Origin: an uncultured Gammaproteobacteria bacterium
GTDB lineage: Bacteria > Patescibacteriota > Microgenomatia > JALYQM01
Direction: 5' to 3'
Assembly (NCBI GenBank): GCA_964535655.1
Contig: CAZHTP010000003.1
Coordinates: 131,396 to 195,395 of the forward strand
Length of the DNA: 64,000 nt
Both the position numbers and the translations under genes were made by a program. The notes below the pieces were generated by a model, which saw only the letters and a list, made by a program, of their open reading frames with translations, was not told the origin of the DNA and did no database searches. Shown piece after piece: positions 1 to 24,977 of this stretch (the first letter of the stretch is position 1; every line of letters begins with the position of its first letter).

Positions 1-698
1 AGTTTAGTAATACTTTGAGGTGCGAAATATTGAATGTGTTCCGGAATCATATTATAGTTGTAGTCTTTACCAAAAATTTTAAAAGCAAGAGAATCGGCAT
101 TGGGAACTTCAACTATTACCTTTCCATTTTTGTTTAGTTTAGAGTAAATTATTTTTAAATCGGCGAGTGGATTTTGAACATGCTCAAGTACATGCCACAT
201 TGTTACAGCATCGAAAGTATTATCTATCTTTACTAAATCAGCTATATAGCCCGAATAAACTCTATCTTTCCCGATTTTCTCGGACGAATTCTGAACTGCA
301 ACAGGATAGGGATCCATGCCAAACACACTGTACCCTTCTTTTTTTAAACTGCTTAAAAACTCTCCGTTTCCGCAACCGATATCTAACAGCTTGCAGTTTT
401 TTGTGATATTTTCTTTCGTAAAATCCTGATAAGAACTAAAGATTTTGAACTGAAATAATTTAGTAATTACTTTGTTTGATGGTTTTTCAGCTAATTCTTG
501 ATAATATTCTTCCTTTTGATATATTTTGTTTATTTCTTCTGGTGATAATTTAGGATCAAGCAGATAGTATCCACAGTTTGGGCAGGAATAGTATGTAAAA
601 AATTCGTTCTTAAAATCTGCTGGTCGTTGATTGGGTATATCCACTATTTTTCTAAAATCATTTGTAGACTCACATACTAGACAATGTAATTTTTTCAT
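1..698 (-). CDS. class I SAM-dependent methyltransferase with N-terminal CxxC..CxxC zinc ribbon; 3' partial (C-terminus runs off the window start)
   Basis: Manual minus-strand translation from ATG at 698: MKKLHCLVCES...CPNCGYY...LLDIGCGNGEF (SAM motif I)...VIVEVPNADS. Frame is open to position 1. Paralog of the 2782..3630 product. Confidence 0.6.
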   Translation of the reverse strand, partial: MKKLHCLVCESTNDFRKIVDIPNQRPADFKNEFFTYYSCPNCGYYLLDPKLSPEEINKIYQKEEYYQELAEKPSNKVITKLFQFKIFSSYQDFTKENITKNCKLLDIGCGNGEFLSSLKKEGYSVFGMDPYPVAVQNSSEKIGKDRVYSGYIADLVKIDNTFDAVTMWHVLEHVQNPLADLKIIYSKLNKNGKVIVEVPNADSLAFKIFGKDYNYNMIPEHIQYFAPQSITK

Positions 699-699
699 A

Positions 700-1755
700 T
701 TATTTAAACCTATTTAATTTCTCATTTGTATCTTTATAACAATTATGGAATATTTCTAATAAATTACCTTTAACCATAATGGAATCAAAGATTCTTTTAT
801 CTGAAAAACCTCGAATACTTTGCATATACTTACGCTCCCTGAGAGTTGAAGGTAAGGTTGTAACAAGCCAAACAAAGGCTACAGGTAAACTAATTATGGG
901 ATAGATATTTCCATTAATTAAATTGATACATGCTCGAGCTATAAGTAGCATAATCCCCTGCGGAAGATACCATATTAGATTGGCTAATTCGTAATTTTTA
1001 ATTAGCATTCGTAATACCCGTATAGAGGCCATTTCCTGTTGAATCTTAGTTACGCTTTTTTTTCGTATACTCCAAGGTTTAACTGTTACATGATAGGTTA
1101 TAGAGGTAGGAACACTGATAATTCTATTTCCACTAACCCAAATTCGCCAACCAAGTTCTATATCATCAATTCTATCCATTTCTTCGTCAAAACCTCGAAG
1201 TTTTTGTAAAACTGATTTACGAACAAAGGTACCAACTGCGCCCATACTTACTTCCTGGGATTGAACTTTATATTCAAATTCTTTTTCAGCAAAACCTACC
1301 GCGGAAACCCACCCAACCTGAGGAATCAATTTAAGCCCTACTGCTTGCAATAATTCGGGGTGATCGATGTCTCTTACCTTACCACTAACTCCTCCAATTG
1401 TACTATCTGATTCGAGAATTTTTATTGCTTCTATCATCCAGTTGTGATCAAATTTCATGTCGGTTTCTGCCAGAGCAATATATTTACCTTTAGTTACTTC
1501 AATTGCTCTATTTCTGCTACTTGTTAATCCCCGTTTTTGCAGGGTATTAATAATTTTTATCCGTGGTTCATGTAACTCGATTTGTGCGAGATATTCTTTT
1601 GATCCGTCGGTTGATCCATCATCAACTATAATTACCTCAAAGTTAGGATAATTAGTACTTAGAAGACTCTTAAGAAAATCTTCAATATATTCTCTGGTAT
1701 TATAGTTGGGGATTATAACGGAGACGAGTGGAGAAGTAGATTCAGTTATTGCCAT
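700..1755 (-). CDS. family 2 glycosyltransferase (GT-A fold)
   Basis: N-terminal VSVIIPNYN...EVIIVDDGSTDGS signature, with DxD-containing Rossmann-like core. Confidence 0.8.
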   Translation of the reverse strand: MAITESTSPLVSVIIPNYNTREYIEDFLKSLLSTNYPNFEVIIVDDGSTDGSKEYLAQIELHEPRIKIINTLQKRGLTSSRNRAIEVTKGKYIALAETDMKFDHNWMIEAIKILESDSTIGGVSGKVRDIDHPELLQAVGLKLIPQVGWVSAVGFAEKEFEYKVQSQEVSMGAVGTFVRKSVLQKLRGFDEEMDRIDDIELGWRIWVSGNRIISVPTSITYHVTVKPWSIRKKSVTKIQQEMASIRVLRMLIKNYELANLIWYLPQGIMLLIARACINLINGNIYPIISLPVAFVWLVTTLPSTLRERKYMQSIRGFSDKRIFDSIMVKGNLLEIFHNCYKDTNEKLNRFK

Positions 1756-1775
1756 AGTCGATGTCTTTTATATTA

Positions 1776-2789
1776 CTAGCTGAAATACTCTTTGTAAATT
1801 GAGAGTAAACTTTTTTTAGTAAATACTTTATCCATTATTGCCTTGTCCGTTGTTTTTCTTATTTTAGCCTGAATATTATTCCTTTCCTGCAAGGTATTAC
1901 TCATATTGGCAATAGTCCAAATTAATCCTTTTGTAGTGCCCTTAATCGCAGAGATGTCTCTACTTCGTAAAAGAAGTAGTGCTCGAATTATTAATATAGC
2001 TATTGCAACGGGCAAATAATATATAACATTCTGCCATTCATAATTTTTAAGGATACTACGCAGAGAATTTTTTGCCAGATGAAAATATATCTTTTCTTTT
2101 GTAGCAAACATTCCTTTACGATCTGCCACTTTTTTTGTCCAGTGGTATACCTTTGATTGAGGTGCAGAGATAATTTCATAACCACTTAACCATATCCGAA
2201 AAGAGAATTCTATGTCTTCGGTATAAACACCAAGTAATTCATCAAAACCACCTAATTTTTCGTACAAATCTTTTCGCACTGACATGGCCGCTGATAAGGC
2301 AATTATATTTGTATTAATCAGTGGCCGCTCATCAACTTTTTTACCAGCGTATAAAGGAATTCCCCAAAACGTATGCGGAATAAGATGTGTTCCAATTAAC
2401 TGGATACTATCGCGATTAAGAAAATCTATTAATGTACTCTGTACTCCTCCCACACTACCCTCGTTCAATAGCGGGGTAATTAATGGATCTAACCAGTCTT
2501 GGTCAACCTCGGTATCGTTATCCAGGAATATGAGGATATTGGTGGTTGCTCTGCTAACTGCATGATTTCTGGTTGCTGCAGCTCCGAGATTAGAAAGGTT
2601 CTGAAGTAATACTAGTCGTGAATCTGTTCTCTGTATTTCTCGAATATATTCGAGAGACGAATCTGTTGAACAATCATCGCAGATAATCAGCTCAAAGTCC
2701 CGATACGTACTTTTGAGAATGGAAGGGATACTAACTTCAAGAAATTTTCTCCCATTGTAAGTTGCGATAATAATTGAGATTTTATTCAT
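1776..2789 (-). CDS. family 2 glycosyltransferase
   Basis: ISIIIATYNGRKFLEVSIPSIL...ELIICDDCSTDSS; C-terminal hydrophobic helices. Confidence 0.8.
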   Translation of the reverse strand: MNKISIIIATYNGRKFLEVSIPSILKSTYRDFELIICDDCSTDSSLEYIREIQRTDSRLVLLQNLSNLGAAATRNHAVSRATTNILIFLDNDTEVDQDWLDPLITPLLNEGSVGGVQSTLIDFLNRDSIQLIGTHLIPHTFWGIPLYAGKKVDERPLINTNIIALSAAMSVRKDLYEKLGGFDELLGVYTEDIEFSFRIWLSGYEIISAPQSKVYHWTKKVADRKGMFATKEKIYFHLAKNSLRSILKNYEWQNVIYYLPVAIAILIIRALLLLRSRDISAIKGTTKGLIWTIANMSNTLQERNNIQAKIRKTTDKAIMDKVFTKKSLLSIYKEYFS

Positions 2790-3630
2790 AGGATTGCCAC
2801 ACCTGTCTCAGAATATCACCTTTTTTTTGTTGTGATGCTGTCCACTGGATTTGAATCGATTTAAGTTTATTGCGCATTGTGTTTGTTGTTGCTTTGGCAT
2901 AGAGAAAAGGCATTGCAAATGGAGTCTCGGAGATAATAACCTTAAACCGGTTTTGTTCTGCCAGATACCGAAGAGAACTATCACTCCAATACGTAACATG
3001 TTCGGGAATTGAAAACCAGGGATATTTATTACCTGTTCGCTTTAAAACTTCAGATTCAGCATTGGGGACTTCGATAATAAAATATCCAGAAGGGATCAAC
3101 TTCTCTTTAATGCTCAGAATAAAATGATTAGGATCGGGGTTATGTTCAAGAACATGCCAGGCTGTTATACAATCAAATTTATGAGTCCACGGGAGATTAG
3201 GTATATCTCCGCTAAAAATAGTATCCAATTGTAATCGCTTTTTGGCTAAACCTGCGGCATACTCACTCCATTCAGTACCATAGACATCGACATTTCTGTT
3301 TTTCATATCAAAGAGAAAACTTCCGTTTCCACACCCAACATCCAGTAACTTTTGTCCACTTTTACAATAATTTGTGGTTGTCGTGATTCGATTTTTTGAA
3401 AGTAAATTCATTACTTTAGTGGGGAGATTGTCCGAGACATTTTCATAGAGGTTGTAATTTTCATTGTAGATCTTGGTTAAAATATCTTGGCCCGGAAATG
3501 GTTCGAGCATCCAAAGCTTACAGTTATTACATTCAAAATAACGATAAAAAGGATTACCTACCTTGCGAGGATTGGGAATGCCTTCAAGCATGGTGTGACC
3601 ATCGGTTTTATTACATACTACACATTTCAT
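2782..3630 (-). CDS. class I SAM-dependent methyltransferase with N-terminal zinc ribbon
   Basis: MKCVVCNKTDGH...FECNNCKLW (Cys4), LLDVGCGNGSF motif I, FIIEVPNAES. Overlaps neighbours by 8 and 4 nt. Confidence 0.75.
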   Translation of the reverse strand: MKCVVCNKTDGHTMLEGIPNPRKVGNPFYRYFECNNCKLWMLEPFPGQDILTKIYNENYNLYENVSDNLPTKVMNLLSKNRITTTTNYCKSGQKLLDVGCGNGSFLFDMKNRNVDVYGTEWSEYAAGLAKKRLQLDTIFSGDIPNLPWTHKFDCITAWHVLEHNPDPNHFILSIKEKLIPSGYFIIEVPNAESEVLKRTGNKYPWFSIPEHVTYWSDSSLRYLAEQNRFKVIISETPFAMPFLYAKATTNTMRNKLKSIQIQWTASQQKKGDILRQVWQSYE

Positions 3631-4508
3631 ATTTTTATTGTTAATCCTTCACCCACTCCTTTGAGAAAATCTCCAACGCCGGAGTATTTATGATATTTGA
3701 TTGCCAATTTAGAATAATACAAAAAAAACAGAGGGAGGAATATAAGAAAAACCATGAAGTGCGGACTATATTTGCGCATAAAAATAATTCTATTACGTGC
3801 AAGAAGTTTTGTCAGTTGTAAAAGTCGAATATTAGCTCGGTCTAAATCGTACGGTATTTTATGATAGGCAACCGCTTTTGGCGTGTAATATGTCTTGTAG
3901 CCTGCTTTTTTTACTCTTGTGCAATAATCGGTATCTTCATAGGAATGATAATAAATTGGGTCAAATATGCCTACTTTTTCAATTATCTCTTGCCTGGTTA
4001 AAAGTACTGCCGGTGCTACACCAACCTGAACAACTTGATCATACTGACCGACATCTTCTCCCCCTCGAAATAAATTCTGTCCGGTAGTTAAATTAATGTC
4101 TGTACCAGCAGACCAGATTATTTTCTTATTTTCCCAATAAAATATTTTTGGTGTGACGATGCCGATACTTGGATCGGATTCGGCTGTTTTCAGTAATTCT
4201 TCCAACATAGTAGGCTCGGCCACCATGTCGTGATCGAAAAAAAGTAAATAATCATAATCCGATGCCTGCTTAATGCCCTCATTTCTACCGCCAACAACAC
4301 CAGTATTGGTCGGAAGTTGAACCAATTGCATTAATCTGTTGGATGAATATTTTTGCGTTAAAAGATTAAAGGTTCCATCAGTTGAGGCATTGTCAATCAC
4401 TATTAGTTTAGCGCTCTTGACGGTTTGATTTAGAATAGAATCGATTGCTTCGCAAGCAGCTTCTTTTTGATTATAGGTAGGGATTATCGTAATAATTTTA
4501 TTTTCCAC
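3627..4508 (-). CDS. family 2 glycosyltransferase
   Basis: ITIIPTYNQ...LIVIDNASTDGT...FFDHD (DxD). Confidence 0.8.
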   Translation of the reverse strand: MENKIITIIPTYNQKEAACEAIDSILNQTVKSAKLIVIDNASTDGTFNLLTQKYSSNRLMQLVQLPTNTGVVGGRNEGIKQASDYDYLLFFDHDMVAEPTMLEELLKTAESDPSIGIVTPKIFYWENKKIIWSAGTDINLTTGQNLFRGGEDVGQYDQVVQVGVAPAVLLTRQEIIEKVGIFDPIYYHSYEDTDYCTRVKKAGYKTYYTPKAVAYHKIPYDLDRANIRLLQLTKLLARNRIIFMRKYSPHFMVFLIFLPLFFLYYSKLAIKYHKYSGVGDFLKGVGEGLTIKI

Positions 4509-4563
4509 GACTTGATTATACTATTTTAGTCGTTTATTATCATCCCACTTCAGGCTGAATTCT

Positions 4564-4818
4564 ATGCTTAAACAAAGGCTACGTTTTATTTTTTCCTCAA
4601 CACATATTTTTCCGTATCTTACTTTGTTTTTGATTTTAATTATTCTAACGTTAAGCGGTATATTTCTCTTCTATTTTTTTCTTAGGACAAAAAATAAATT
4701 GTTGCTATTGGGCGGTGGGGCACTCACCGGGGTCTTAGGTTTTTTGTTGTCACTTTTTTTACTTTCCTATGTGCTTAAACCTCCCTTTGGGATAGGCAAG
4801 GAACTCTTTATTCCGTAG
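4564..4818 (+). CDS. hypothetical small membrane protein (2 predicted TM helices)
   Basis: ORF in a 610-bp gap between minus-strand GT genes. Strongly hydrophobic, with a GGGALTG motif. No homology recognised. Confidence 0.3.
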   Translation: MLKQRLRFIFSSTHIFPYLTLFLILIILTLSGIFLFYFFLRTKNKLLLLGGGALTGVLGFLLSLFLLSYVLKPPFGIGKELFIP

Positions 4819-4869
4819 GACGAAGTTACGCAAAACCTACCTGATGATGAAAATAGTTTTTATTCCCTA

Positions 4870-5121
4870 ATGAAATCTATTCCTCAAAATTCGTCCGTGT
4901 ATGTTGATAATTTTGACTTCCCTGAGATTCGTCGAGGACTAATTTTGAGATTGTCACACACCAATTTATTATATGGCCCTGCCTATCTTCAAGCGGCACT
5001 GCAAAATCCAACTATAAAATACCTCTTTCTTAATCCTACCAACGTAACGGAACAAGTAATAGTAGCGTTTATATTCAAAGACAAAGTACGTGAAGTTGAG
5101 TTGTGGGAGATGAAGAATTAA
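4870..5121 (+). CDS. hypothetical protein
   Basis: ORF in the same gap; no recognisable domain. May be spurious. Confidence 0.2.
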   Translation: MKSIPQNSSVYVDNFDFPEIRRGLILRLSHTNLLYGPAYLQAALQNPTIKYLFLNPTNVTEQVIVAFIFKDKVREVELWEMKN

Positions 5122-6317
5122 TGACTATGCAAGTGTGCTAAGATACTTTCTGATCTTTTCCCCCAATCCCAGTCATTTTCTATTAAGTTTTTTGCTTGCT
5201 GTTGCACTTCTGCATACTTTTGCGGGTTAGTAATTAGTTCAACAATGGCATCGGCAAAAGCGGCAATATTACCAAAGGGAATTTTTATCATTCCTTGTGG
5301 ATAATATGTTTTTAATGCTTCAAGATCAAAGGAGATGGCGGGAATATCCCACGCCATGGCTTCTGCTGCCGCCATACCGCCACTATCGTAGACTGCAGGA
5401 TGGAGCGCAATTTTACTTTGCGAAAAATAGCGATATTTTTCTTCGCCGTCGAAAAGATAGCCCGTGAGAATAATATTTTTCTCTAAACCAAGAGAGTGCA
5501 CTTTTTCTTTTACTTCGGACATAAGTGGACCATCACCCATCATTACTAATTTTGCATTCGGCATGATGTCAGTAACTTTTTTCCAGATATCTATTAGCTC
5601 CAGAACACCTTTTTGCGGATGGAAACGTCCTAAGAAAACTGCCTCATATTTTTTGTCAACGATGCCAATTTTTTCTTTCCACTCGTTAATCTTTTGCAAA
5701 TCGACGCCACCTTTGATGATGAGGCAATGTCCCCGTTTGTCTTGAGAAGGAAAGCGCTTAGTGTCTGGATCGCTGGTGACAAAAATATATTCTGCATAAT
5801 TTTTGAAAAGCCAATAAATAGGTAGTTGTTGCATGAAATATACGATACCTTTTATGCTTGGTAGTTTAACTTTTCCTATTTCGGTGAATCCTTTAAAGGG
5901 ATTGGGGGCCGCGAGATAAAATGAACCAATTAGTTGCGCTTTCGGATAGCGGAATTTTAAAATAAGTGAAGGTATGGCATCCTGCCAAAAGTCCGAGCAT
6001 GAATAAATATAACTATGTTCTTCTGACAAGGGATATACCCGAGTGAACGCAAAATATACGCCTGAAAAAATACGATAAATATAGTTAATTATAAAGGGTA
6101 GTTTAGTTACCGGCCCAATAAACCATTTATTAAACGATATATTGGGCAGACTTTCAGTAATGCTTTCTCTCTTACACATTTCGTATCCATCTTCCCAGAC
6201 ACAAATCATTATCTTACTATTTTTATGTGACCAATTACGGGCAAGTTCCATAAAAATTCGATCAGAACCTGATAATCCTGAACCTACAGCAGCATTGGCA
6301 ATAAACACAAAGTTCAT
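5118..6317 (-). CDS. GT4-family (GT-B fold) glycosyltransferase
   Basis: C-terminal GGMAAAEAMAWDIPAISFD motif (E-X7-E-like region typical of retaining GT4 enzymes). Confidence 0.75.
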   Translation of the reverse strand: MNFVFIANAAVGSGLSGSDRIFMELARNWSHKNSKIMICVWEDGYEMCKRESITESLPNISFNKWFIGPVTKLPFIINYIYRIFSGVYFAFTRVYPLSEEHSYIYSCSDFWQDAIPSLILKFRYPKAQLIGSFYLAAPNPFKGFTEIGKVKLPSIKGIVYFMQQLPIYWLFKNYAEYIFVTSDPDTKRFPSQDKRGHCLIIKGGVDLQKINEWKEKIGIVDKKYEAVFLGRFHPQKGVLELIDIWKKVTDIMPNAKLVMMGDGPLMSEVKEKVHSLGLEKNIILTGYLFDGEEKYRYFSQSKIALHPAVYDSGGMAAAEAMAWDIPAISFDLEALKTYYPQGMIKIPFGNIAAFADAIVELITNPQKYAEVQQQAKNLIENDWDWGKRSESILAHLHSH

Positions 6318-7045
6318 ATTTTTTTGGCTTTCACTATTACAATGTAAGGAATTGATTCACTATCTTCTAATTTATAGGGAACAAGCTCTCCAGTGCAATT
6401 AATAAGTGTCTTGTAAGCCCGCCACATCTTTTGGACCGCCTTAGAGTTCGTCTTGCAGGCAATCCATCTCACCGATTGGATAATCTTCATGGAGGTACTC
6501 TCCTGGGCTACTATTTTCTCAATTTTGAAATGCTTACTTACAAGGTTTATGAACTGCTTTGTCGTAAATTCCTGGACATGAAAATGATTTGATGAAATCT
6601 CCCCTAAGGAAAACCCCATTATATCCGGACTTGAGATATATATTTCTCCATTTGACTTGAGAACTCTGGCCAGTTCTTTTAAATAGCTTTCTACTTTATC
6701 TATCGGTAAATGTTCAATAGTTTCAAAGGAAATAATTGTATCGAAGGTATTGTCCGGAAATTCAATCTGCGAGGCATCTCCTTGTTGAAAAATAATTTTT
6801 GGACTGACAAATTCTTTTTTGGCACTTTCGATGGCTTCATTTGAAATATCTATGCCAATTACCTGGCTTGCGGATTTTGCTAAAATATTACTTCCATACC
6901 CGGTTCCACAGGCAATATCTAAAACTTTAGTACCAACTCCCTCGCTCAGAGCAAATTGATACCGCTTTATATGTTGATTAATGGTTCCCTTATAAATCCA
7001 GGAAGTATTGTCTGGATGTATTCGTTCAAGAGGTTTGATCCACAT
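6314..7045 (-). CDS. class I SAM-dependent methyltransferase
   Basis: VLDIACGTGYGS motif I; 4-nt overlap with the upstream GT4 gene. Confidence 0.75.
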   Translation of the reverse strand: MWIKPLERIHPDNTSWIYKGTINQHIKRYQFALSEGVGTKVLDIACGTGYGSNILAKSASQVIGIDISNEAIESAKKEFVSPKIIFQQGDASQIEFPDNTFDTIISFETIEHLPIDKVESYLKELARVLKSNGEIYISSPDIMGFSLGEISSNHFHVQEFTTKQFINLVSKHFKIEKIVAQESTSMKIIQSVRWIACKTNSKAVQKMWRAYKTLINCTGELVPYKLEDSESIPYIVIVKAKKI

Positions 7046-7052
7046 AGGCGAA

Positions 7053-12928: not shown

Positions 12929-12935
12929 TTAAAAG

Positions 12936-14069: not shown

Positions 14070-14127
14070 GGGTGTATTTTATCATTTTATTGCAGTAAGT
14101 GTTGCCAAGAGAGTTAACAGCAATAAA

Positions 14128-14323: not shown

Positions 14324-14324
14324 A

Positions 14325-15380: not shown

Positions 15381-15424
15381 TATAATTAGTTGTCATTATA
15401 ACCTGAAGCTTCGTATGTTACAAT

Positions 15425-16189
15425 TTGAGTATGAAAGAGCTTGATAACAAAATTGCACTGGTGACTGGAGCAGCAAAAGGAATTGGTCGCGGGATAGCAC
15501 TGGAGATGGCCAAGGCAGGGGCTACTGTTGTTCTTGCTGATATTGATGATGCAAGCTTATTGCAAACGGAGCGAGCATTTGTGAATGAAGGGTATTCATG
15601 TGCCGCTCAGAACTCTGATGTTAGTTCGCGTGAGCAAAATGATTCGCTTGTTGATAGTATATTAGAAAAATATGGTCGCATCGATATTTTAGTTAATAAT
15701 GCTGGATATTACCAAGATATGCCCTTACTTGATGGTAATTTTGCTGATGTCCAGAAGATTTTTCTCACTAATATTATTGGTCCTTACTTTTTAACTCAAC
15801 GTGTTGCCCGTGAAATGATATCCCAAAAAACTCATGGCTCGATACTTTTTACCTCTTCCACTCATGCTCGAGTCACTATTATGCGGCCGGCGTATTCTTC
15901 TTCCAAAGCCGCAGTCGAGATGTTTGTACGGGAAACTGCATTGGAGCTGGCAGAATTTGGTATTCGGGTCAATGCTGTTGCGCCTGGCGCCATAGATATT
16001 TGGGCTATGGAAAACAGAAGATCTGAACATGTTCCGATGGGACATTTGGGGACTCCTGAAGATATAGGGCACGCCATGGTTTATTTAGCTAGTGATAAAG
16101 CTCTCTATATAACCGGGCAAACACTAACTGTTGATGGTGCTTTTTCATTGGCACATACCCATTACTGGGGTAAAAAAGGTAAACTGTAG
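15425..16189 (+). CDS. SDR-family oxidoreductase (3-oxoacyl-ACP reductase-like)
   Basis: LVTGAAKGIGRGIA (TGxxxGxG), NNAG, YSSSKAA (YxxxK). Probable true start is ATG at 15431. Confidence 0.8.
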   Translation: MSMKELDNKIALVTGAAKGIGRGIALEMAKAGATVVLADIDDASLLQTERAFVNEGYSCAAQNSDVSSREQNDSLVDSILEKYGRIDILVNNAGYYQDMPLLDGNFADVQKIFLTNIIGPYFLTQRVAREMISQKTHGSILFTSSTHARVTIMRPAYSSSKAAVEMFVRETALELAEFGIRVNAVAPGAIDIWAMENRRSEHVPMGHLGTPEDIGHAMVYLASDKALYITGQTLTVDGAFSLAHTHYWGKKGKL

Positions 16190-16254
16190 ATTCCAACAAA
16201 ATAGATATTGCAATTCGTCTTCTTTTTGAACTATAGTTTTAGAAGGGTCGTACC

Positions 16255-16812
16255 ATGTGTACTGTTGAAGGATTATTTGCTCGAGAATTTTCCGTACGTT
16301 TAGACCAAAACGGTCAAAGAAGAATTGCTTCACTTCTTGATATTCCACAACAAAATCCGAAATTTGAAGTTGTTTCTTTGGATGCTCATTCAATAACGCA
16401 TGTAGCGGTGAATATCGCTGAACCTTTAACTGAAATTCCAGTAGACCAGCTTGCCGATCCACAATTTCTAAATCGTTACTATCATCGTCATTTGGGGAAT
16501 TTAGATGGATTTAGAGCCGTAGTTGTTGACTCAGGTACATATGCACTCGTGCTTCGTCAAATTGAGCTTCACCATCCGGGGTTTTTACGAGATACATTTT
16601 TAATTGATCCGGACGGAAATAAAGGATTAAGTGGATTCCGCTGGATTGTAACGCAGGACGAACCACTGCGGTTACGCGACCCCCATGGTTGTACACTGAC
16701 TTATGCTGCGGTCCTAGCTTCACATAACGGCACAGATTTTTGTCTAGGACATCGGATGATTAGTTCCGGCGCCGCCGATATCGGGATACTTCCGGTTATT
16801 ATTCCTGAATAA
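16255..16812 (+). CDS. hypothetical protein, in a locally GC-enriched segment
   Basis: 185-aa ORF with no recognised motif. The region is noticeably GC-richer than its flanks, with competing ORFs on both strands. Confidence 0.35.
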   Translation: MCTVEGLFAREFSVRLDQNGQRRIASLLDIPQQNPKFEVVSLDAHSITHVAVNIAEPLTEIPVDQLADPQFLNRYYHRHLGNLDGFRAVVVDSGTYALVLRQIELHHPGFLRDTFLIDPDGNKGLSGFRWIVTQDEPLRLRDPHGCTLTYAAVLASHNGTDFCLGHRMISSGAADIGILPVIIPE

Positions 16813-16817
16813 ACTAC

Positions 16818-16841
16818 GGTAGAGAAAAACCTACCTTTTTA
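16818..16841 (+). terminator. putative intrinsic terminator
   Basis: GGTAG-agaaaaac-CTACC hairpin followed by TTTTT, between convergent genes. Confidence 0.35.
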
Positions 16842-16845
16842 ATTC

Positions 16846-19680: not shown

Positions 19681-19716
19681 AGGAATTACCCAGTAATTAG
19701 TGCTTGCACTAGCATA

Positions 19717-20847
19717 TTATATATTTTTTGAAGCTGCTAGAAGAGAAAGCGACTTCTCTGTAGCGTTCTTCCATGTAAACTGGTTACTCCAATCCTTAGC
19801 ATTGGACTGGAATTGTTTATACAACTCCTGATTGGACACAAGATCTGTAACTCCTCGAACAAAATCCTCTTCGCTTGAAACTACGAAACCGGTGCTATTG
19901 TTATTTACACTGTTTCTTAACCCCGCAGCGTCAAAAACTACCGCTGGAGTGCCAACTGCGTTGGCTTCAATTACAACTAGGCCCCATCCTTCTTTATACG
20001 AGCCATGGACTAACATTGTTGCTTTTTGAAGTAATTCAAATTTTTTTTCCTGGGATACTTTTCCATAAAAAGTTATATCGTTATGACATTCTTCAGACTT
20101 AACTTTATTAACTACCTGTTGTCCATACGGCAATGAATGATCTCCGACAACCCATAACTTGCAATTTGATATTTCTTTTTTTATCAATTTAAAAGCACTA
20201 TATACCCGATCAAATCCTTTCATTGGACGTAATTGACTCAAAAAAATAATAGTTGGTTCTATTTCTTTAGGATACGTTTTTAAGCCATTGGGGACGGTAA
20301 CGCCGTAGGGAATTAATGTAATGTTGTTTTTAGGTATACCGATTTTTATAAGATCATCGACGGTCGTTTGTGCTCCGGCGATGATCGGTACTTTTTGATA
20401 TGCCTTAAAAAATAATGGTTCGACAAGGTTTTGCATTATCCAACTGAGCGGAAACGGTACCGTTTTTTTCCAAATGTCCCCGGCAACTTCATGTATTATT
20501 ACTACTTTTTCTTTTTTGATGTAGAGTGGCGTAAGGAACGGAGGGCCATGAATTTCATCCACAACAAAATCAAATTCTTTGTGCCATTTTGTCATCCATT
20601 TGATAAAAATAAACAGGTGGATTAGACCTAAAAACCACATCCATTTTTTTCCGATATGCTCATATTCAACTCCATTTTTTGATGTTATTGAGGTGCTTCC
20701 TGGATAATTTATGCTTACCCAGTGAACTCGATGCCCGGCTTTAACCCAGGCAATGGCGTGTTGCTCACCCGAGATTTCTGCGCCACCAGCGTTGGGATTT
20801 GTTATATCTTTCCATGAAAGCCAAAGAATGTTCATATTATTCATCAA
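19717..20847 (-). CDS. GT4-family glycosyltransferase
   Basis: KEGWGLVVIEANAVGTPAVVFDAAGLRNSV. Confidence 0.75.
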   Translation of the reverse strand: MMNNMNILWLSWKDITNPNAGGAEISGEQHAIAWVKAGHRVHWVSINYPGSTSITSKNGVEYEHIGKKWMWFLGLIHLFIFIKWMTKWHKEFDFVVDEIHGPPFLTPLYIKKEKVVIIHEVAGDIWKKTVPFPLSWIMQNLVEPLFFKAYQKVPIIAGAQTTVDDLIKIGIPKNNITLIPYGVTVPNGLKTYPKEIEPTIIFLSQLRPMKGFDRVYSAFKLIKKEISNCKLWVVGDHSLPYGQQVVNKVKSEECHNDITFYGKVSQEKKFELLQKATMLVHGSYKEGWGLVVIEANAVGTPAVVFDAAGLRNSVNNNSTGFVVSSEEDFVRGVTDLVSNQELYKQFQSNAKDWSNQFTWKNATEKSLSLLAASKNI

Positions 20848-21613
20848 ATTGCTTAATTAACCAGTTTTCTTTGTTCGCGTCATCGTAATAATGTAGAATG
20901 TGCATTCTGTAAAAAACAGCTGCTGTATCCCACAACATATTTACGATCGCTTTGCGATTTATACTCGTATTTGAAAAAACATGTGTGAGCTCTACGGGAG
21001 CTTCGTAGACCTTAGTGTAGCCTAAGTGATAGGCTACGGCGAGCATTTCGATATCAAACGCCCACCTTTTGATTAGTAATCGCGGCATGACATCTTCTAG
21101 AACCTGACGCTTAAAAATCTTGAGTCCAGTTTGTGTATCTCGAATAGTTAATCCGAAAAGCATTTTGCACACTATCTGATACCCGAAACTGTATACTCTG
21201 CGCAACCACGGATATACTACTTTTGAAGCAGGATGCCTTTTAGATCCAACAATAATGTCTGCTTTGTACCATTCCATATGCTCAAGCAGCATCGACAGCC
21301 CATTTGGATTTAAATCCATTCCTGAATCTATGAATGCGATATATTCTCCCGTAGCTTTTGAGATTCCGTATCGAACGGCGTATCCTTTGCCGCGATTTTT
21401 ATCATACGAATATAACTTTACTTTTGACTTCGGAGAAGCAACCTCTTCCTTAAATTCCTCCATCTTTTGAAAAGTTTTATCTGAGCTTCCGTCATTTACA
21501 ACAATCATTTCATAGTCATAGCGCAATTGTTCTAACACTTTTTGAATATGATCTAGGTCTTCCACTATGGTTTTTTGCTGCTTATAGGCAGGAATTATAA
21601 CTGAGATTTTCAT
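20837..21613 (-). CDS. polyprenyl-phosphate sugar transferase (DPM1/ArnC/GtrB-like GT2)
   Basis: KISVIIPAYK...MIVVNDGSSDKT...NRGKGYAVRYGISKATGEYIAFIDSGMDLNP...IRDTQTGLKIFKR...FDIEML. This is the classic Dpm1/ArnC signature. Confidence 0.8.
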   Translation of the reverse strand: MKISVIIPAYKQQKTIVEDLDHIQKVLEQLRYDYEMIVVNDGSSDKTFQKMEEFKEEVASPKSKVKLYSYDKNRGKGYAVRYGISKATGEYIAFIDSGMDLNPNGLSMLLEHMEWYKADIIVGSKRHPASKVVYPWLRRVYSFGYQIVCKMLFGLTIRDTQTGLKIFKRQVLEDVMPRLLIKRWAFDIEMLAVAYHLGYTKVYEAPVELTHVFSNTSINRKAIVNMLWDTAAVFYRMHILHYYDDANKENWLIKQFDE

Positions 21614-22962
21614 AAAGCTTTCTTACGCATTGAAAAATAGAATTGTATTGTTAGGAGCATGTATATTACTACACAACTGCCTAATACTAGTATAGAGACA
21701 GTAATTAACTGCGTAATGGTTTGATGAAAGAAGAAAATTCCAACGGCTTGAATAATTGCGGCGACCATAACCATCCCGGCTGTTTTGTTTTTTCCAACAG
21801 ATAAGAAGAAAAATGAAAAAACATTAAGCAGTGCGTAAAATAATTGCGAAATACTAAACATGCCTACATAGGGAACTGCATCAATGAATTTCTGGCCAAA
21901 GAGCATGGATATAACTAGTTTCGGGAACAGTATGTATATGGTTGTCACAAACCCTGCCCCAGCAGTCACTACTCCTAATACAACTGCAAATAATGGTAGA
22001 AAATTTTTCTTCTGAGCAACTCTTTGTACAATTTGAGGAAACATTACAATAACCAATGGTTGCGTAAAGAAAGGGATAACTTTACAAGTTATGGCTAAAG
22101 ATGAATATAAGCCTGCTTCAAATGGTGATAAGAAGGATTTAGCTAAAATTACATCGACTTGTACAAGGCTTCCCAATCCCCAAGCATTTAAGGTTGAAAA
22201 CAAAGCAAAGACTAACAATTCTCTATCAATTTTGAACGATTTGGTGGGATCAACGTAGGGCACGAAAAGATATCGCAAGAAATTTTTAGACTTTTTGATG
22301 AACTGGCTCGAATTTAGGCTTGTTTGATGGACGATGTTATCGATTGCCACCCATGATAGAGTTATAACCGCAAAAGATGAAAGTATCATTGCGATTAATA
22401 CGCCATTAACTCTTAACCCTAGCATGATAAGGGTTATTGCAAGAATGATTCTTGATGTTACCAAAATTCCAGCATATACACTGGCTGTGGCAAATCGTTG
22501 TAAGCCGGTAAATGCTCCATTTAATAGTGTTTGAGGAAATGTTGTTGCAAAGATAATACTTATTAAGATTAGCGACCAGAAATCTTTTAGTTTTAAATTA
22601 CTTAGTATCTGATTTTGAAATAAAACAAGAATACACAAAAAAATCGCTGAAAATATCAGTGAATACTTTGTCATTATTATGAGGAGTGGCTTTATTTTTT
22701 GTAACTCACCTTTTGATGAATATAGTGCTACATATTTTGTAACCAGCGTTGCTAAAACATTTGATGGTACTGAGGATAAATATAAAATCGAGACGAGTGC
22801 TAAATATTCACCATACCCCACTACTCCTAACATCCTGCCAATAATGACATTAAAGATATAACTAAGAACATTTACGCCGAACGCTCCCACGAATGCGACT
22901 GCGCTCCCCTGAAAAAAAGGGTGTTTAACAATTTTAACTACCGATTCTTTGGAGAGATTCAT
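21610..22962 (-). CDS. Wzx-like polysaccharide/oligosaccharide flippase (MOP/MATE-like superfamily)
   Basis: 450 aa, ~12-14 hydrophobic helices, polysaccharide biosynthesis protein-like; sits within the GT operon. Confidence 0.65.
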   Translation of the reverse strand: MNLSKESVVKIVKHPFFQGSAVAFVGAFGVNVLSYIFNVIIGRMLGVVGYGEYLALVSILYLSSVPSNVLATLVTKYVALYSSKGELQKIKPLLIIMTKYSLIFSAIFLCILVLFQNQILSNLKLKDFWSLILISIIFATTFPQTLLNGAFTGLQRFATASVYAGILVTSRIILAITLIMLGLRVNGVLIAMILSSFAVITLSWVAIDNIVHQTSLNSSQFIKKSKNFLRYLFVPYVDPTKSFKIDRELLVFALFSTLNAWGLGSLVQVDVILAKSFLSPFEAGLYSSLAITCKVIPFFTQPLVIVMFPQIVQRVAQKKNFLPLFAVVLGVVTAGAGFVTTIYILFPKLVISMLFGQKFIDAVPYVGMFSISQLFYALLNVFSFFFLSVGKNKTAGMVMVAAIIQAVGIFFFHQTITQLITVSILVLGSCVVIYMLLTIQFYFSMRKKAL

Positions 22963-23995
22963 ACACTGAAACCGTTTCCTGTGTCATTTTTACCAATGAG
23001 AATTTCTTAGATTGCTCAAGACTTTTTTCTTGTAATGCTTTATAGGCTGCTAGATCTAGTTCAAACATTTTTTCAATTGCTTCTGCTGTTTCGTTTATAT
23101 CATATGGATTAACAAGAATACCCGAATTACCAACTATTTCTGGCTGGCTTCCCGTATTACCTGCAATTACCGGTGTACCACAGCTCATTGACTCTAGCGC
23201 AGTTAAGCCAAATCCTTCATATAAAGAATTATGCATAGTTGCCCGAGCTAAGGTATATAGGGATGACATATCTTCCGTTGGCACGAACCCTAATCTATGA
23301 ACTCTTTTACCCAGACTAAAATTTTGAATATCCTCAACTATTTCTTGTAGCTCTGGAATTAAGGGAGCACTTTGATCAAGTGCTCTTCCAACGAGTACTA
23401 GATGAAATTCTGGATTTGTCCTCGTAAGAGCATCGAATAAGGCGTGAAAGTTTTTGTGTTTATTGATGTCTCCCACGCGAATAATATATTTTTCGGGCAA
23501 GTTATATTTTTTCTTTATTTCTTGGAGTTTATCGGCATTTTTCTCACGATGATACACAGGGTCGCAGGCGAGATAGACTGTTTCTATTTTTTCTTTTAGT
23601 ATTCCAAGATGTTTAGAGATATCGTTTTTTGAACACTCCGAATCGGTGATTATTTTGTCTACTTTTTTAAGATTTCTTTTTTGAAAATGCAGTTTTATTT
23701 TTCCCTTAACACCAGGTGGAAATAACTTTGGTAACACGAGTGGTGTAACATCGTGCACGGTCACAACAACTGGAGTGTTTTTCCTTTCTGGTAAGGTGCG
23801 GAAAAAAAGATCGAAAAATGGATAATGAATAATATCCGGTGAGATTTTATTTAGCTCGGATTCATTTTTAACTTGAAGATATTCATTACCATCATGTAGA
23901 TTTTTCAAACCTTCAACTAATTGCCTTGTGTACATGCCTACCCCTCTTGCTGCATTAGCATTGTGTAATGGTGACGTGTCTATTGCGACTTTCAT
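22934..23995 (-). CDS. GT4-family glycosyltransferase
   Basis: YEGFGLTALESMSCGTPVIAGNTGSQPEIVG. Start re-assigned to the internal ATG (MKVAIDTSPL...) at 23995. The longer track ORF would overlap the divergent gene. Confidence 0.75.
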   Translation of the reverse strand: MKVAIDTSPLHNANAARGVGMYTRQLVEGLKNLHDGNEYLQVKNESELNKISPDIIHYPFFDLFFRTLPERKNTPVVVTVHDVTPLVLPKLFPPGVKGKIKLHFQKRNLKKVDKIITDSECSKNDISKHLGILKEKIETVYLACDPVYHREKNADKLQEIKKKYNLPEKYIIRVGDINKHKNFHALFDALTRTNPEFHLVLVGRALDQSAPLIPELQEIVEDIQNFSLGKRVHRLGFVPTEDMSSLYTLARATMHNSLYEGFGLTALESMSCGTPVIAGNTGSQPEIVGNSGILVNPYDINETAEAIEKMFELDLAAYKALQEKSLEQSKKFSLVKMTQETVSVYESLQRIGS

Positions 23996-24041
23996 AGAGC
24001 AATTATACATAATTGCGCCGATTTGATACAATTTTCCTGCT

Positions 24042-24977
24042 ATGAAAGATACTAAAGATATTGGGTTAACGGTTGCCCTTGCTGTTTTCAATGAAGAAAA
24101 TACTCTACAGGAATGCCTTGAATCCATAAAATCGATTGCAGATGAAATTGTAATTATAGATGGCGGTAGCACGGATAATACTATTGATATAGCTAAATCT
24201 TTTAATGCTGTTATTATTCAAACAGATAATCCAGCTGTTTTTCATATAAACAAGCAGAAATCTCTTGGCGCTTCGCACGGAAAATGGATTCTTCAACTGG
24301 ATGCTGATGAGCGAGTTTCACCTGAGTTGGCAAAAGAGATCCGTAAGATTGTTGAGAGTAGTGATTCTGAACTTGAGAATCATGATGTAGATGCAACGCG
24401 ATACGAAATGCTTAAGAAGCATATGGAGCTCCTTGCTGCTCGGGAAGGGGCGATCGGAACAGATGAAGGCCCGATTGTTGCCTTTTTTATTCCGCGTAAA
24501 AATTATTTCCTGGGCAGGTTTTTAATGCATGGTGGAGTATACCCGGATGGAACAATACGGCTGGTACGAAACGGAAAAGCAAAATACGGATTAAAAGATG
24601 TTCATGATCAAATGATCATTGATGGACAAGTTTCATTTTTGTCTAACAATTTAATTCACATGGCTGATCCTACTTTTGAACGGTATTTGACTCGATCAAA
24701 TAGATATACCGGCTTACAAGCAAAGCAATGGTTGGAGAATGTTGGTAAGAACGGCACTCATGGAGTGCTCGGTCCCAATGCTTCAGCTCCAGGAACTTCA
24801 TTTTTATCCATTTTTAAATATATGGTTGTTTTGCCTAAAATAACATTTTTATCTCTCTATTTCCGTCACCGGGGATACCGAGATGGCTTCCCTGGTTTTA
24901 TATGGGCGCTTTACTCGGCTTTGCATATTGCTTCCAGTTATGTTAAGTATTGGGAAATGCGAAGACGCGTTAACTAG
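24042..24977 (+). CDS. family 2 glycosyltransferase
   Basis: IGLTVALAVFNEENTLQECLESIKSIADEIVIIDGGSTDNT...QLDADE. Confidence 0.8.
   Translation: MKDTKDIGLTVALAVFNEENTLQECLESIKSIADEIVIIDGGSTDNTIDIAKSFNAVIIQTDNPAVFHINKQKSLGASHGKWILQLDADERVSPELAKEIRKIVESSDSELENHDVDATRYEMLKKHMELLAAREGAIGTDEGPIVAFFIPRKNYFLGRFLMHGGVYPDGTIRLVRNGKAKYGLKDVHDQMIIDGQVSFLSNNLIHMADPTFERYLTRSNRYTGLQAKQWLENVGKNGTHGVLGPNASAPGTSFLSIFKYMVVLPKITFLSLYFRHRGYRDGFPGFIWALYSALHIASSYVKYWEMRRRVN

Follow-up and report, generated by a model that had tools for sequence, protein, structure and literature searches.

A predicted mosaic surface-glycan gene cluster with interleaved methyltransferase genes in an uncultured Patescibacteria bacterium

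We find that the window, the whole 64,000-nt stretch of DNA analysed here, holds a real and fairly ordinary surface-glycan gene cluster of a small-genome, uncultured Patescibacteria bacterium, the notable parts of which are four interleaved methyltransferases, a rare GT2–GT-C fusion and an uncharacterised outward-facing enzyme. With a probability of roughly 0.55 for both statements jointly, we read the region as a ~38-kb mosaic cell-envelope glycan-assembly locus of Patescibacteria (CPR) that works by the mechanism proposed below. An earlier note on this DNA had predicted a dedicated glycan-assembly locus working on a lipid carrier, and our analysis supports that prediction.

Results

Gene content and extent of the locus

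Domain families, folds, topology, gene order, conservation and pseudogene relics are established features of the sequence. Pfam assignments above curated cut-offs gave, for positions 1–24977, (i) seven GT2 domains (PF00535; six single genes and the N-terminal domain of 7053–10103), (ii) four GT4-type genes (PF00534), (iii) four class-I SAM methyltransferases and (iv) one MOP flippase (Polysacc_synt). The earlier note had counted four GT4 genes and four methyltransferases correctly, but gave eight GT2. As it stated, the locus lies mostly on a single strand, with 17 of 20 intact genes on the minus strand, and its overlaps of 4–13 nt recur at six same-strand junctions (8, 4, 4, 13, 11 and 4 nt), to which the flippase/GT4 junction adds a longer one of 29 nt. 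The locus is not confined to 1–24977, as had been assumed, but continues beyond a tRNA gene to ~38430 (~38.4 kb), a stretch that encodes a UGM-like flavoprotein, an 11-TM protein and five GT-C enzymes of the PMT/PMT_2 type.

1–698, minus strand: MT_a, class-I SAM methyltransferase with N-terminal CxxC...CxxC zinc ribbon (Methyltransf_23, E=3e-26); C-terminus cut off by the window edge
700–1755, minus strand: GT2_a, GT2 with one C-terminal TM helix in the TM scan (PF00535, 95 bits)
1776–2789, minus strand: GT2_b, GT2 with one C-terminal TM helix (PF00535)
2782–3630, minus strand: MT_b, zinc ribbon and class-I SAM methyltransferase (Methyltransf_23, E=2e-23)
3627–4508, minus strand: GT2_c, GT2 with GTG start (PF00535)
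4509–5117, plus strand: decayed membrane-protein gene (N-terminal relic 4564–4818, C-terminal relic 4831–5115)
5118–6317, minus strand: GT4_a, GT-B of GT4 type (PF00534, 96 bits)
6314–7045, minus strand: MT_c, class-I SAM methyltransferase (Methyltransf_11/25)
7053–10103, minus strand: GT2–GT-C fusion, 1016 aa, GlfT2-like GT2 domain (PF00535) and AftD-like GT-C
10091–10930, minus strand: MT_d, class-I SAM methyltransferase (Methyltransf_11), 13-nt overlap with the fusion gene
10970–12928, minus strand: unk652, membrane-anchored, extracytoplasmic, DUF3863-like glycoside-hydrolase/deacetylase fold
12936–14069, minus strand: GT4_b, GT-B (PF00534 and PF13439)
14173–14283, minus strand: IMPase (SuhB-type) remnant, ~37 codons
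14325–15380, minus strand: GT2_d, GT2 with C-terminal TM helix (PF00535)
15425–16189, plus strand: SDR-family oxidoreductase (adh_short_C2, E=1.5e-56), divergent from GT2_d
16255–16812, plus strand: orf185, ORF of uncertain status
16846–19680, minus strand: surf944, secreted or anchored surface protein with fn3, large uncharacterised domain, linker and CBM60 (Pfam)
19717–20847, minus strand: GT4_c, GT-B (PF00534, 124 bits)
20837–21613, minus strand: GT2_e, TM-less GT2 of DPMS/GtrB/ArnC type
21610–22962, minus strand: MOP-superfamily (Wzx-like) flippase, 12 TM in the TM scan (PF01943, 35.5 bits; cut-off 28.2)
22934–23995, minus strand: GT4_d, GT-B (PF00534), start revised to ATG 23995 (MKVAIDTS...)
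24042–24977, plus strand: GT2_f, divergently transcribed GT2 (PF00535, 62 bits)
25014–25086: tRNA-Arg(CCT)
25755–27266, minus strand: FAD flavoprotein of the PRK07208 family (NF005548, 439 bits; cut-off 389)
27312–28928, minus strand: PMT/PMT_2 paralogue (Pfam)
28925–30868: mem647, 11-TM protein (TM scan), no Pfam match
30930–31439: orf169, within the GT-C array
31451–33172, minus strand: PMT/PMT_2 paralogue (Pfam)
33175–34971, minus strand: PMT/PMT_2 paralogue (Pfam)
34968–36620, minus strand: PMT/PMT_2 paralogue (Pfam)
36694–38430, plus strand: PMT/PMT_2 paralogue (Pfam)

A GTG start for GT4_d (22934–24172) is less likely, since it would give a 131-nt overlap with the divergent GT2 gene.

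All NCBIfam matches of the glycosyltransferases and methyltransferases score far under the curated equivalog cut-offs, which leaves their donors and acceptors unassigned. ORFs of at least 100 aa scanned across the 64-kb window include no initiating phosphoglycosyltransferase (PF02397, PF00953), Wzz, ABC exporter or LCP ligase, and the window holds no recognisable Wzy. Little weight attaches to these absences, since the remainder of the 232-kb contig may carry the initiating enzyme, a ligase and nucleotide-sugar genes.

Methyltransferases are interleaved with glycosyltransferases

The interleaving of methyltransferase with glycosyltransferase genes is genuine, and the two are translationally coupled, overlapping by 4–13 nt (MT_b overlaps its neighbours on both sides, by 8 and 4 nt); relatives keep the arrangement, with four methyltransferases each in the contigs L001 and L002 and at least three in L084. 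The 'heavily methylated' glycan of the earlier note needs revision: we infer sugar O-methylation from gene context only, the methyltransferases matching just generic class-I SAM folds. MT_b and MT_d match only generic methyltransferases in the PDB, with no similarity specific to WbdD or other sugar methyltransferases. Given the resemblance of the methyltransferases to generic class-I enzymes only, their substrates could instead be lipids, proteins or phosphoethanolamine-type substituents.

Transcription units

In five minus-strand genes a TATAAT box ends 6–14 nt ahead of the start codon (0.46 expected), and among the five is every one of the three genes preceded by a non-coding gap (starts 23995, 15380 and 4508). 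This pattern suggests at least three predicted minus-strand transcription units in 1–24 kb and argues against the 'one or two long operons' envisaged earlier. The box ends 6 nt before the GTG start of GT2_c, the start of MT_c and ATG 23995 of GT4_d, and 14 nt before the start of GT2_d, where it forms part of TTGTAA-17-TATAAT at 15423–15395. Probable unit heads are GT4_d (proximal), GT2_d (central) and GT2_c (distal), with a possible internal promoter ahead of 7045 (MT_c). Generic scans stayed at chance level for both promoters (72 against 67 expected) and terminators (16 against 14).

Conservation and mosaicism

Three other Patescibacteria contigs (L001, L002 and L084) keep the gene order at 46–85% protein identity, so the arrangement cannot be put down to chance. 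The 11-gene block from GT4_b to MT_a retains its order in L002 at 46–85% identity and mostly in L001. The triad GT4_b–unk652–MT_d is common to the window and all three contigs: GT4_b (71–78% identity) adjoins unk652 in every syntenic locus, the two together spanning 55–78%, and MT_d reaches 83–85% in L001/L002 and, in L084, where the alignment is partial, only 43%. Distally, MT_a shares 71% identity with the last core gene of L002 (35% with its paralogue MT_b), GT2_a has a 77%-identical counterpart in L002 and only a 30%-identical paralogue in L001, and GT2_b (33% to its paralogue GT2_a) reaches 64% in L002 and 45% in L001; values are 63–72% for GT2_c in both contigs, 78% (L001) and 60% (L002) for GT4_a and 69% for MT_c in L001. 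GT4_c is 66% identical in L001. GT2_d (74–80%) and the SDR gene (79–81%, position unchanged) keep their divergent pairing in L001 and L084, and a homologue of surf944 (53% identity) occupies the corresponding position in L084, whereas L001 lacks the gene. Six unrelated genes (PIG-L, EamA, MOSC, glyoxalase, AlkZ) separate the SDR–GT2_d module from the GT4_b–unk652–MT module in L084, so the modules may serve more than one product. Judged from these comparisons, the locus consists of modules, found apart in relatives, that form a mosaic and not one indivisible unit.

Two gaps hold gene relics. The '610-bp segment' of the earlier note exists (609 bp, 4509–5117), but its small plus-strand ORFs are relics of one decayed gene without a Pfam match: 4831–5115 matches residues 315–426 of a 432-aa L001 protein (44.6% identity, E=2.5e-22), and orf84 shares 60% identity with the N-terminal part of a paralogous L001 ORF and 37% with the N-terminus of a 751-aa L001 protein. 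The IMPase remnant noted earlier is real; its minus-strand frame (VIDPIDGTSNFAQGIPLFGIMMGLLLEDKSIAGIILR), flanked by stop codons within the 255-bp gap 14070–14324, matches SuhB/IMPase residues 88–124 (3luz, E=3e-6), and 30 further IMPase-family chains match. We rejected an IMPase assignment for orf185, which has no Pfam, NCBIfam or PDB match; it is missing from L001 and L084.

Membrane and surface components

The fusion protein comprises a cytoplasmic GT-A domain (aa 1 to ~340), a TM bundle (~366–777) and a beta-rich extracytoplasmic domain (789–1014), an architecture found in ~9 proteins among billions. Stand-alone relatives of its C-terminal half belong to PF11847, a model that the window protein itself fails, and near relatives of its GT2 domain (49% identity) occur joined to methyltransferase domains (P0009, P0013). 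Its invariant GEE (aa 400–402) lies ~9 residues past TM1 and would therefore face outward if the GT-A domain is cytoplasmic. In unk652, the fold is accompanied by a signal anchor, two further TM helices and an alpha/beta domain at the C-terminus; no histidine is invariant, which means that the CE4 His-His-Asp metal site has not been kept, and the enzyme is probably a hydrolase or transglycosylase rather than a metal-dependent deacetylase. The surf944 linker (aa 763–812, 50 aa, directly before CBM60) is 56% S/T/P, and CBM60 gave the sole PDB match of this protein.

GT2_e is a candidate polyprenyl-phosphate sugar synthase: its top PDB match is the DPMS 5mlz (E=1.3e-14, aa 1–206, the whole catalytic domain), followed by GtrB and ArnC, and its top NCBIfam matches are PgfS, ArnC and PpgS, all under curated cut-offs. 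Its gene and the flippase gene overlap by 4 nt, an order repeated in L001 (GT2_e 80%, flippase 67% identity). The downstream paralogues share 22–35% mutual identity and all keep a D-E pair just past TM1; GT-C enzymes in the window number seven. The flavoprotein's nearest solved relatives are UDP-galactopyranose mutases (1i8t, E=1e-11, over ~170 N-terminal aa), and it scores 62 bits against the UGM equivalog model, below the cut-off of 304.

Proposed mechanism

For the lipid carrier, donor sugars, acceptor, sugar methylation and flipping direction, as for the transcription units, we infer the following scheme. On the cytoplasmic face, GT-A (GT2) and GT-B (GT4) enzymes would lengthen a lipid-linked glycan, most GT2s being tethered to the membrane through one C-terminal helix, and the four soluble SAM methyltransferases, translationally coupled to them, would modify it, most plausibly by sugar O-methylation. 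GT2_e would load polyprenyl phosphate with a monosaccharide, and the overlapping 12-TM flippase would carry this donor, possibly also a primer glycan, across the membrane. Outside, GT-C enzymes, namely the AftD-like module of the fusion and the five PMT_2 paralogues at 27–38 kb, would draw on lipid-phosphate sugars, either adding length or branches to the glycan or glycosylating a surface protein, and unk652 would trim or remodel the product.

Discussion

The model of the earlier note was a classical Wzx/Wzy-type (or synthase-type) heteropolysaccharide locus, in which 11 GT-A/GT-B enzymes and the methyltransferases build an O-methylated repeat unit on cytoplasmic Und-PP that is flipped whole, then polymerised and attached outside, the GT-Cs only decorating it. 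The 12-TM MOP/Polysacc_synt flippase and the numerous soluble or monotopic glycosyltransferases and methyltransferases with overlapping frames fit this model; mem647, with 11 TM helices and no match to any family, could represent a divergent Wzy polymerase, and the L001 insert of paralogous polytopic proteins, of which 4509–5117 holds a relic, could be polymerase- or ligase-like. We nevertheless consider it unlikely. An initiating phosphoglycosyltransferase, Wzz and LCP ligase, and any recognisable Wzy, are missing from the 64 kb and from the 23-kb syntenic loci alike; translational coupling joins the flippase to a DPMS/GtrB-type GT2; and seven GT-Cs far exceed the usual need of side-chain decoration. 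On the same grounds the flippase, whose presence had been taken to imply a glycan on a lipid carrier, may by analogy with GacK transport polyprenyl-P-monosaccharide donors rather than a completed repeat unit.

PMT enzymes (GT39) are protein O-mannosyltransferases with polyprenyl-P-mannose as donor, and the locus might mainly serve protein O-glycosylation, its PMT-family GT-Cs moving sugars from polyprenyl-P-sugar to Ser/Thr-rich secreted proteins such as surf944 and its cytoplasmic enzymes building or elongating the glycan. Intact D-E motifs in six PMT/PMT_2 paralogues, the Ser/Thr/Pro-rich linker of surf944, the synteny of surf944 with SDR–GT2_d in L084 and the DPMS-like GT2_e speak for this reading. 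We hold it to be quite unlikely, however: PF13231 (PMT_2) also includes ArnT-like lipid/polysaccharide transferases, L001 lacks surf944 though the rest of the locus is kept, and the AftD-like module and DUF3863-fold enzyme suggest a polysaccharide acceptor. Very unlikely, in our judgement, is a reading in which several independent pathways, for glycolipid synthesis, decoration of wall polymers and protein glycosylation, have come together by chance in a variable region, with no single 'heavily methylated glycan'. Mosaic conservation such as that of GT2_a, the absence of surf944 and orf185 from L001, the split modules of L084, two gene relics at rearrangement points and at least three predicted transcription units would suit it, but the block order from GT4_b to MT_a persists, methyltransferase and glycosyltransferase genes overlap, and GT-A, flippase and GT-C are complementary parts of one known mechanism.

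Comparison with known systems

Methyltransferase-containing polysaccharide clusters include WbdD of E. coli O9a (PMC3482155), P. aeruginosa CPA (PMC3560663) and Klebsiella O-polysaccharide modules (PMC11231755). The common feature is that SAM methyltransferases lie among glycosyltransferases or are fused or coupled to them, and the relatives of the fusion's GT2 domain that are joined to methyltransferase domains add to this likeness; those systems have one or two, often for chain termination, together with an ABC transporter, whereas the window has four and no ABC transporter, kinase or coiled-coil ruler. Mycobacterial methylmannose/methylglucose polysaccharides are a further methyltransferase-linked example. 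BDI_3119 (DUF3863, PDB 3lm3) belongs to the glycoside-hydrolase/deacetylase (beta/alpha)7 superfamily (CE4, GH57, ArnD); unk652 shares the fold at 14% identity with no PF12979 match and, unlike 3lm3, carries the anchor, the extra helices and the C-terminal domain.

In the mycobacterial arabinogalactan machinery, AftD is a GT-C (PF11847; PDB 6w98/6wbx) with three CBMs and a bound ACP (bioRxiv 10.1101/2019.12.22.885152), GlfT2 (PDB 4fix) is a GT2 galactofuranosyltransferase, and UDP-galactopyranose mutase is the third part. Here, sequence identity of the fusion is just 14–16%, GlfT2 and AftD are separate proteins in mycobacteria, AftD is far larger (6wbx chain 1264 aa, against 1016 aa with a soluble C-terminal part of ~230 aa), the window has no UbiA/DprE1-type decaprenyl-phospho-arabinose pathway, and the fusion and the flavoprotein fall short of the PF11847 model and the UGM cut-off. 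The likeness lies in the PF11847 membership of stand-alone relatives of the fusion's C-terminal half and in the UGM-related flavoprotein 15 kb from the fusion.

The published framework of a GT-A polyprenyl-P-sugar synthase, a flippase (GtrA-, MATE- or Wzx-type) and a GT-C describes three-component transmembrane glycosylation by GtrA/GtrB/GtrC in Shigella/Salmonella, GacI–GacK–GacL in Streptococcus pyogenes and CsbB–GtcA–YfhO in Bacillus/Listeria (PMC8035078, PMC11127046), with GacK as the precedent for flipping polyprenyl-P-monosaccharide donors (PMC8035078). Unlike these systems, the window has seven GT-C genes instead of one, with one GT-C fused to a GT-A domain, adds eleven further GT-A/GT-B enzymes and four methyltransferases in the same locus, and shows no backbone-polymer pathway (ABC exporter or Wzy). 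Like them, it combines a DPMS/GtrB-type GT-A enzyme (GT2_e), an adjoining flippase of the Wzx/MOP type, as with GacK, and polytopic GT-Cs with an acidic motif after TM1.

Gene content and extent of the locus

We built a map of nucleotides 1-24977 from an ORF listing and Pfam scans, and the relevant genes do not end at 24977, where the earlier note had placed the end of the locus, but go on to 38430.

Genes and gaps of the locus, by coordinates and strand
<1-698, minus: MT_a, methyltransferase, truncated at the window edge
700-1755, minus: GT2_a, GT2
1776-2789, minus: GT2_b, GT2
2782-3630, minus: MT_b, methyltransferase
3627-4508, minus: GT2_c, GT2
4509-5117: 609-bp gap, non-coding
5118-6317, minus: GT4_a, GT4
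6314-7045, minus: MT_c, methyltransferase
7053-10103, minus: GT2-GT-C fusion, 1016 aa, GT2 domain at the N-terminus
10091-10930, minus: MT_d, methyltransferase
10970-12928, minus: unk652, 652 aa, no family match
12936-14069, minus: GT4_b, GT4
14070-14324: 255-bp gap
14325-15380, minus: GT2_d, GT2
15425-16189, plus: short-chain dehydrogenase
16255-16812, plus: orf185, no family match
16846-19680, minus: surf944, 944-aa surface protein, fn3/CBM60
19717-20847, minus: GT4_c, GT4
20837-21613, minus: GT2_e, GT2
21610-22962, minus: flippase, 12-TM Polysacc_synt (MOP)
22934-23995, minus: GT4_d, GT4
24042-24977, plus: GT2_f, GT2
After 24977: tRNA-Arg(CCT), then a CHRD lipoprotein
25755-27266: flavoprotein of the PRK07208 family, nearest solved relatives UDP-galactopyranose mutases
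27312-38430: five PMT/PMT_2 GT-C genes
28925-30868: mem647, 11 TM, no family match
61399-63090: sixth PMT_2 paralogue

Within 1-24977, seven proteins carry GT2 domains over the PF00535 cut-off (62-98 bits, cut-off 23.3) rather than the eight first counted from the sequence. The remaining counts hold: four proteins are GT4-type GT-B enzymes by Pfam (PF00534, Glycos_transf_1; 96-124 bits, cut-off 26.4), four are methyltransferases above Pfam cut-offs, and one is a Polysacc_synt (MOP) flippase (PF01943, 35.5 bits, cut-off 28.2). The gene overlaps, described as 4-13 nt, measure 8, 4, 4, 13, 11 and 4 nt.

Housekeeping genes begin at ~38.7 kb. We rejected an origin as a mobile element or island, since repeats, IS elements and integrases are absent from 1-40 kb and GC content is uniform across the locus (33-41%). 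Proteins of the window were also found in Logan run SRR8893623. Farther along lie four separate NUDIX hydrolase genes inside 11 kb (39613-40050, 44346-44783, 49995-50504 and 50513-50992) and a bacterial alpha-2-macroglobulin of 1708 aa (51712-56838, minus strand; domains MG2, A2M_BRD, A2M, TED and bMG10), the latter with a Hint/intein-like insertion at ~aa 818-947 (PT-HINT, Vint and Intein_splicing matches).

Relics and predicted transcription units

The inositol monophosphatase (IMPase) remnant reported earlier is genuine and sits in the 255-bp gap at 14070-14324, where a minus-strand frame, VIDPIDGTSNFAQGIPLFGIMMGLLLEDKSIAGIILR, matches SuhB residues 88-124 (E=3e-6). It retains the region of the WxxDPxDGT motif, with only ~37 codons left between stop codons on both sides and no full-length ORF, and is a pseudogene fragment. 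We rejected orf185 as the site of this remnant, since searches of Pfam, NCBIfam and PDB gave it no homologue. This ORF (185 codons, plus strand) lies where the locus is richest in GC (~41%), is absent from L001 and L084, two contigs of relatives with syntenic loci, and may not be a gene.

The gap at 4509-5117, described as a 610-bp segment holding small plus-strand ORFs, is present at 609 bp; the ORFs are rejected as real genes and are relics of one decayed plus-strand gene. Positions 4831-5115 correspond to 112 C-terminal residues of a polytopic L001 protein of 432 aa (44.6% identity, E=2.5e-22), which together with two paralogues holds the equivalent spot there, and orf84, a small ORF in the same gap, aligns with the N-termini of this paralogue family; its expression is still conceivable. 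Both interruptions are therefore scars at junctions between modules. In L001 the three tandem paralogous genes (14995-19799, minus strand; 751 aa, 432 aa and a third that is probably frameshifted) encode polytopic proteins without a Pfam match, for which a polymerase- or ligase-like role is conceivable.

Generic sigma-70 and terminator scans performed at chance level and were uninformative on operons, and Shine-Dalgarno-like motifs are almost absent. A TATAAT hexamer ends 6-14 nt ahead of the start codon in 5/25 minus-strand genes, against 0.46 expected: three of these are precisely those that follow gaps or divergent regions (GT4_d at 23995, GT2_d at 15380 and GT2_c at 4508), and the remaining two are MT_c (7045) and the gene labelled GTC_1 (28928). 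This placement is suggestive of mRNAs with a short leader or none, and of three or more minus-strand transcription units in 1-24 kb, rather than the one or two long operons proposed before.

Conservation in relatives

A search for orthologous loci in relatives showed that the gene order is kept in three other contigs at 46-85% protein identity (L001, GCA_964462765.1; L002/L003, GCA_030154765.1; L084, GCA_964403585.1), which bears out the cluster as real. A core of 11 genes is common to a few related genomes, and the triad of GT4_b, unk652 and a methyltransferase is the most constantly linked set over the window, L001, L002 and L084. In L002 the core is broken at 6739-9175 (minus strand) by genes for an amine-oxidase-like flavoprotein (439 aa) and for a polytopic protein of 374 aa. 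BLAST detected no similarity between this flavoprotein and the one in the window, so a flavoenzyme recurs in these loci, from differing families.

The GT2-GT-C fusion

The AlphaFold model of the 1016-aa fusion (pLDDT 83) comprises an N-terminal GT-A domain, a bundle of ~12 helices spanning ~aa 366 to 777 and a beta-rich C-terminal domain. Its GT-C fold is superposable on AftD by fold comparison, which was required here: a PDB search by sequence alone, using the profile of the fusion, returned GT2 matches only and did not retrieve AftD. The C-terminal module does not match the PF11847 (GT-C_AftD) HMM at E<=1, whereas 4/4 stand-alone homologues of the GT-C module (30-41% identical) do (best E 1.3e-19), so that membership of PF11847 is only transitive. 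GT-C enzymes carry catalytic acidic residues just after TM1, and the fusion has an invariant GEE (aa 400-402) ~9 residues past TM1. In AftD, D41 after TM1 is essential (bioRxiv 10.1101/2019.12.22.885152).

An exhaustive profile search for the GT-C module gave 7,727 representative relatives, nearly all stand-alone proteins of ~650-720 aa; among the top 150, an N-terminal extension is present only in P0233, P0004, P0003 and P0318, and a word-indexed search recovered only seven fusions of full length. In L084 the halves have only distant counterparts (32% and 23% identity), encoded separately within one neighbourhood: a GT2 protein of 349 aa and, three genes farther downstream, an AftD-like GT-C protein of 1132 aa. 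We found nothing in the literature specifically on CPR glycan loci or GT-A/GT-C fusions.

The GT2 domain (aa 1-340) has the signature EYFEYAGAAGG..DKLGYPYARGR. Its identity is 38-45% to GT2 domains that hundreds of genomes of Bacteroidota (loci L004-L082) join to riboflavin kinase/FAD synthetase (RibF), and 49-53% to those joined to PMT_2, methyltransferase or GT4 domains. This GT2 looks like a module prone to promiscuous fusion.

Ectoenzyme and methyltransferases

Neither Pfam nor NCBIfam has a match for the 652-aa protein unk652, and all of its 107 detectable homologues are annotated as hypothetical; those with organism names are from 'Candidatus Levybacteria' and 'Patescibacteria group', and on these names the source organism is placed among the CPR bacteria (Patescibacteria). 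In the model of unk652 (pLDDT 89) we distinguish a signal anchor, an ectodomain of 420 aa, a pair of TM helices and a small alpha/beta domain. We rejected an assignment as CE4 polysaccharide deacetylase: across the 21 family members compared, the invariant residues include several Glu and Asp, the Asp-His-His triad is not conserved and His is invariant at no position, which makes a CE4-type metal site unlikely. On its predicted structure, the family is one of well-modelled, uncharacterised ectoenzymes of the DUF3863 fold, and its predicted chemistry is that of a hydrolase or transglycosylase.

The four methyltransferases exceed the Methyltransf_11/23/25/31 cut-offs and have the class-I SAM-binding fold by Pfam. 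PDB searches gave generic methyltransferase matches only, and all NCBIfam scores lie far below cut-off, the best glycan-related one being MftM (37 versus 200 bits). Gene context and precedent suggest that they act on sugars; methyltransferases occur in the polysaccharide systems of WbdD (PMC3482155), CPA (PMC3560663) and Klebsiella modules (PMC11231755).

Proposed assembly route

By closest homology, GT2_e is a candidate polyprenyl-phosphate sugar synthase of the DPMS/GtrB/CsbB/GacI type. Its best solved relatives are DPMS 5mlz (E=1.3e-14, aa 1-206, the whole catalytic domain), GtrB 5ekp and ArnC; it scores under the PgfS, ArnC and PpgS equivalog cut-offs and has no TM helix. The 12-TM flippase overlaps it by 4 nt, in an order identical in L001. 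GT-C-fold transferases with a predicted extracytoplasmic acidic motif after TM1 are present, and the six PMT/PMT_2 paralogues (22-35% mutual identity) carry a D-E pair just after TM1 in 6/6 cases. The sixth lies 23 kb from the array and adjoins a 301-aa protein without a family match (63078-63983). The flavoprotein at 25755-27266, a member of NF005548 annotated 'hypothetical protein', was rejected as a UDP-galactopyranose mutase equivalog, since it reaches 61.9 bits against a TIGR00031 (UGM) cut-off of 303.75 and aligns over its N-terminal 170 aa only.

These observations speak for a pathway with much of its assembly at the outer face, where it would draw on polyprenyl-phosphate sugars, and in which the cytoplasmic GT2, GT4 and methyltransferase enzymes would build and modify a lipid-linked primer or chain. 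It is favoured by (i) the relatives of GT2_e, its overlap with the flippase and the layout that the pair shares with S. pyogenes GacI/GacK/GacL and other multi-component transmembrane glycosylation systems (PMC8035078, PMC11127046), (ii) seven GT-C enzymes and the ectoenzyme, and (iii) the absence from the 64 kb of an initiating phosphoglycosyltransferase, a recognisable Wzy, a Wzz, an ABC exporter and an LCP ligase. For the first of these, WbaP (PF02397) and WecA/MraY (PF00953) had no match in ORFs of >=100 aa across the 64 kb, nor in L001/L002; for polymerase and chain-length regulator, no protein of the 64 kb matched a Wzy or Wzz Pfam family. A backbone-polymer pathway is likewise not recognisable in the window.

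A classical Wzx/Wzy pathway is possible should the missing genes be located elsewhere, or should mem647, the 11-TM protein without a family match, be a divergent Wzy; the flippase is of the Wzx type, but the initiating transferase was not found in the 64 kb, though the genome could hold one elsewhere. The PMT paralogues make protein O-glycosylation plausible, and a candidate acceptor is surf944, whose linker is 56% Ser/Thr/Pro and which is syntenic in L084; against this reading, L001 keeps the locus without surf944. Such mosaic conservation makes it conceivable that the locus serves more than one product, as it may in L084, where six unrelated genes separate two modules.

The most far-reaching proposal unites the fusion of a GlfT2-like GT-A domain and an AftD-like GT-C enzyme with the flavoprotein resembling UGM, the DPMS-type synthase and flippase, the array of PMT_2 genes and all four methyltransferases in one larger system. 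It would make a methylated, furanoside-containing wall heteropolysaccharide of a monoderm CPR bacterium, an arabinogalactan-like polymer evolved outside Actinobacteria, with one polypeptide physically coupling synthesis of the chain in the cytoplasm to branching outside it. We regard this as a long shot. A donor pathway of the UbiA/DprE1 type was not found in the window.

Discussion

Patescibacteria are host-attached cells for which the surface is presumably the main interface; to our knowledge, almost nothing is known experimentally about their envelope glycans. The locus offers a concrete, conserved parts list with its 11-gene core, and the fusion could reveal how cytoplasmic steps are coupled with extracytoplasmic ones. 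If the product is indeed a methylated glycan, a hydrophobic surface polymer would be added to a lineage regarded as minimal in its biosynthesis.

At the level of annotation, the locus is a large but recognisable glycan-assembly cluster of a poorly studied lineage, and no new kind of system is established. It stands out by a rare GT-A/GT-C fusion, by a family of uncharacterised ectoenzymes with the DUF3863 fold and by four methyltransferases as a conserved load. Among known systems, the two halves of the fusion most resemble the two mycobacterial arabinogalactan enzymes GlfT2 and AftD; whereas AftD features three C-terminal CBMs, ACP binding and decaprenyl-phospho-arabinose, the soluble C-terminal part of the fusion comprises only ~230 aa.
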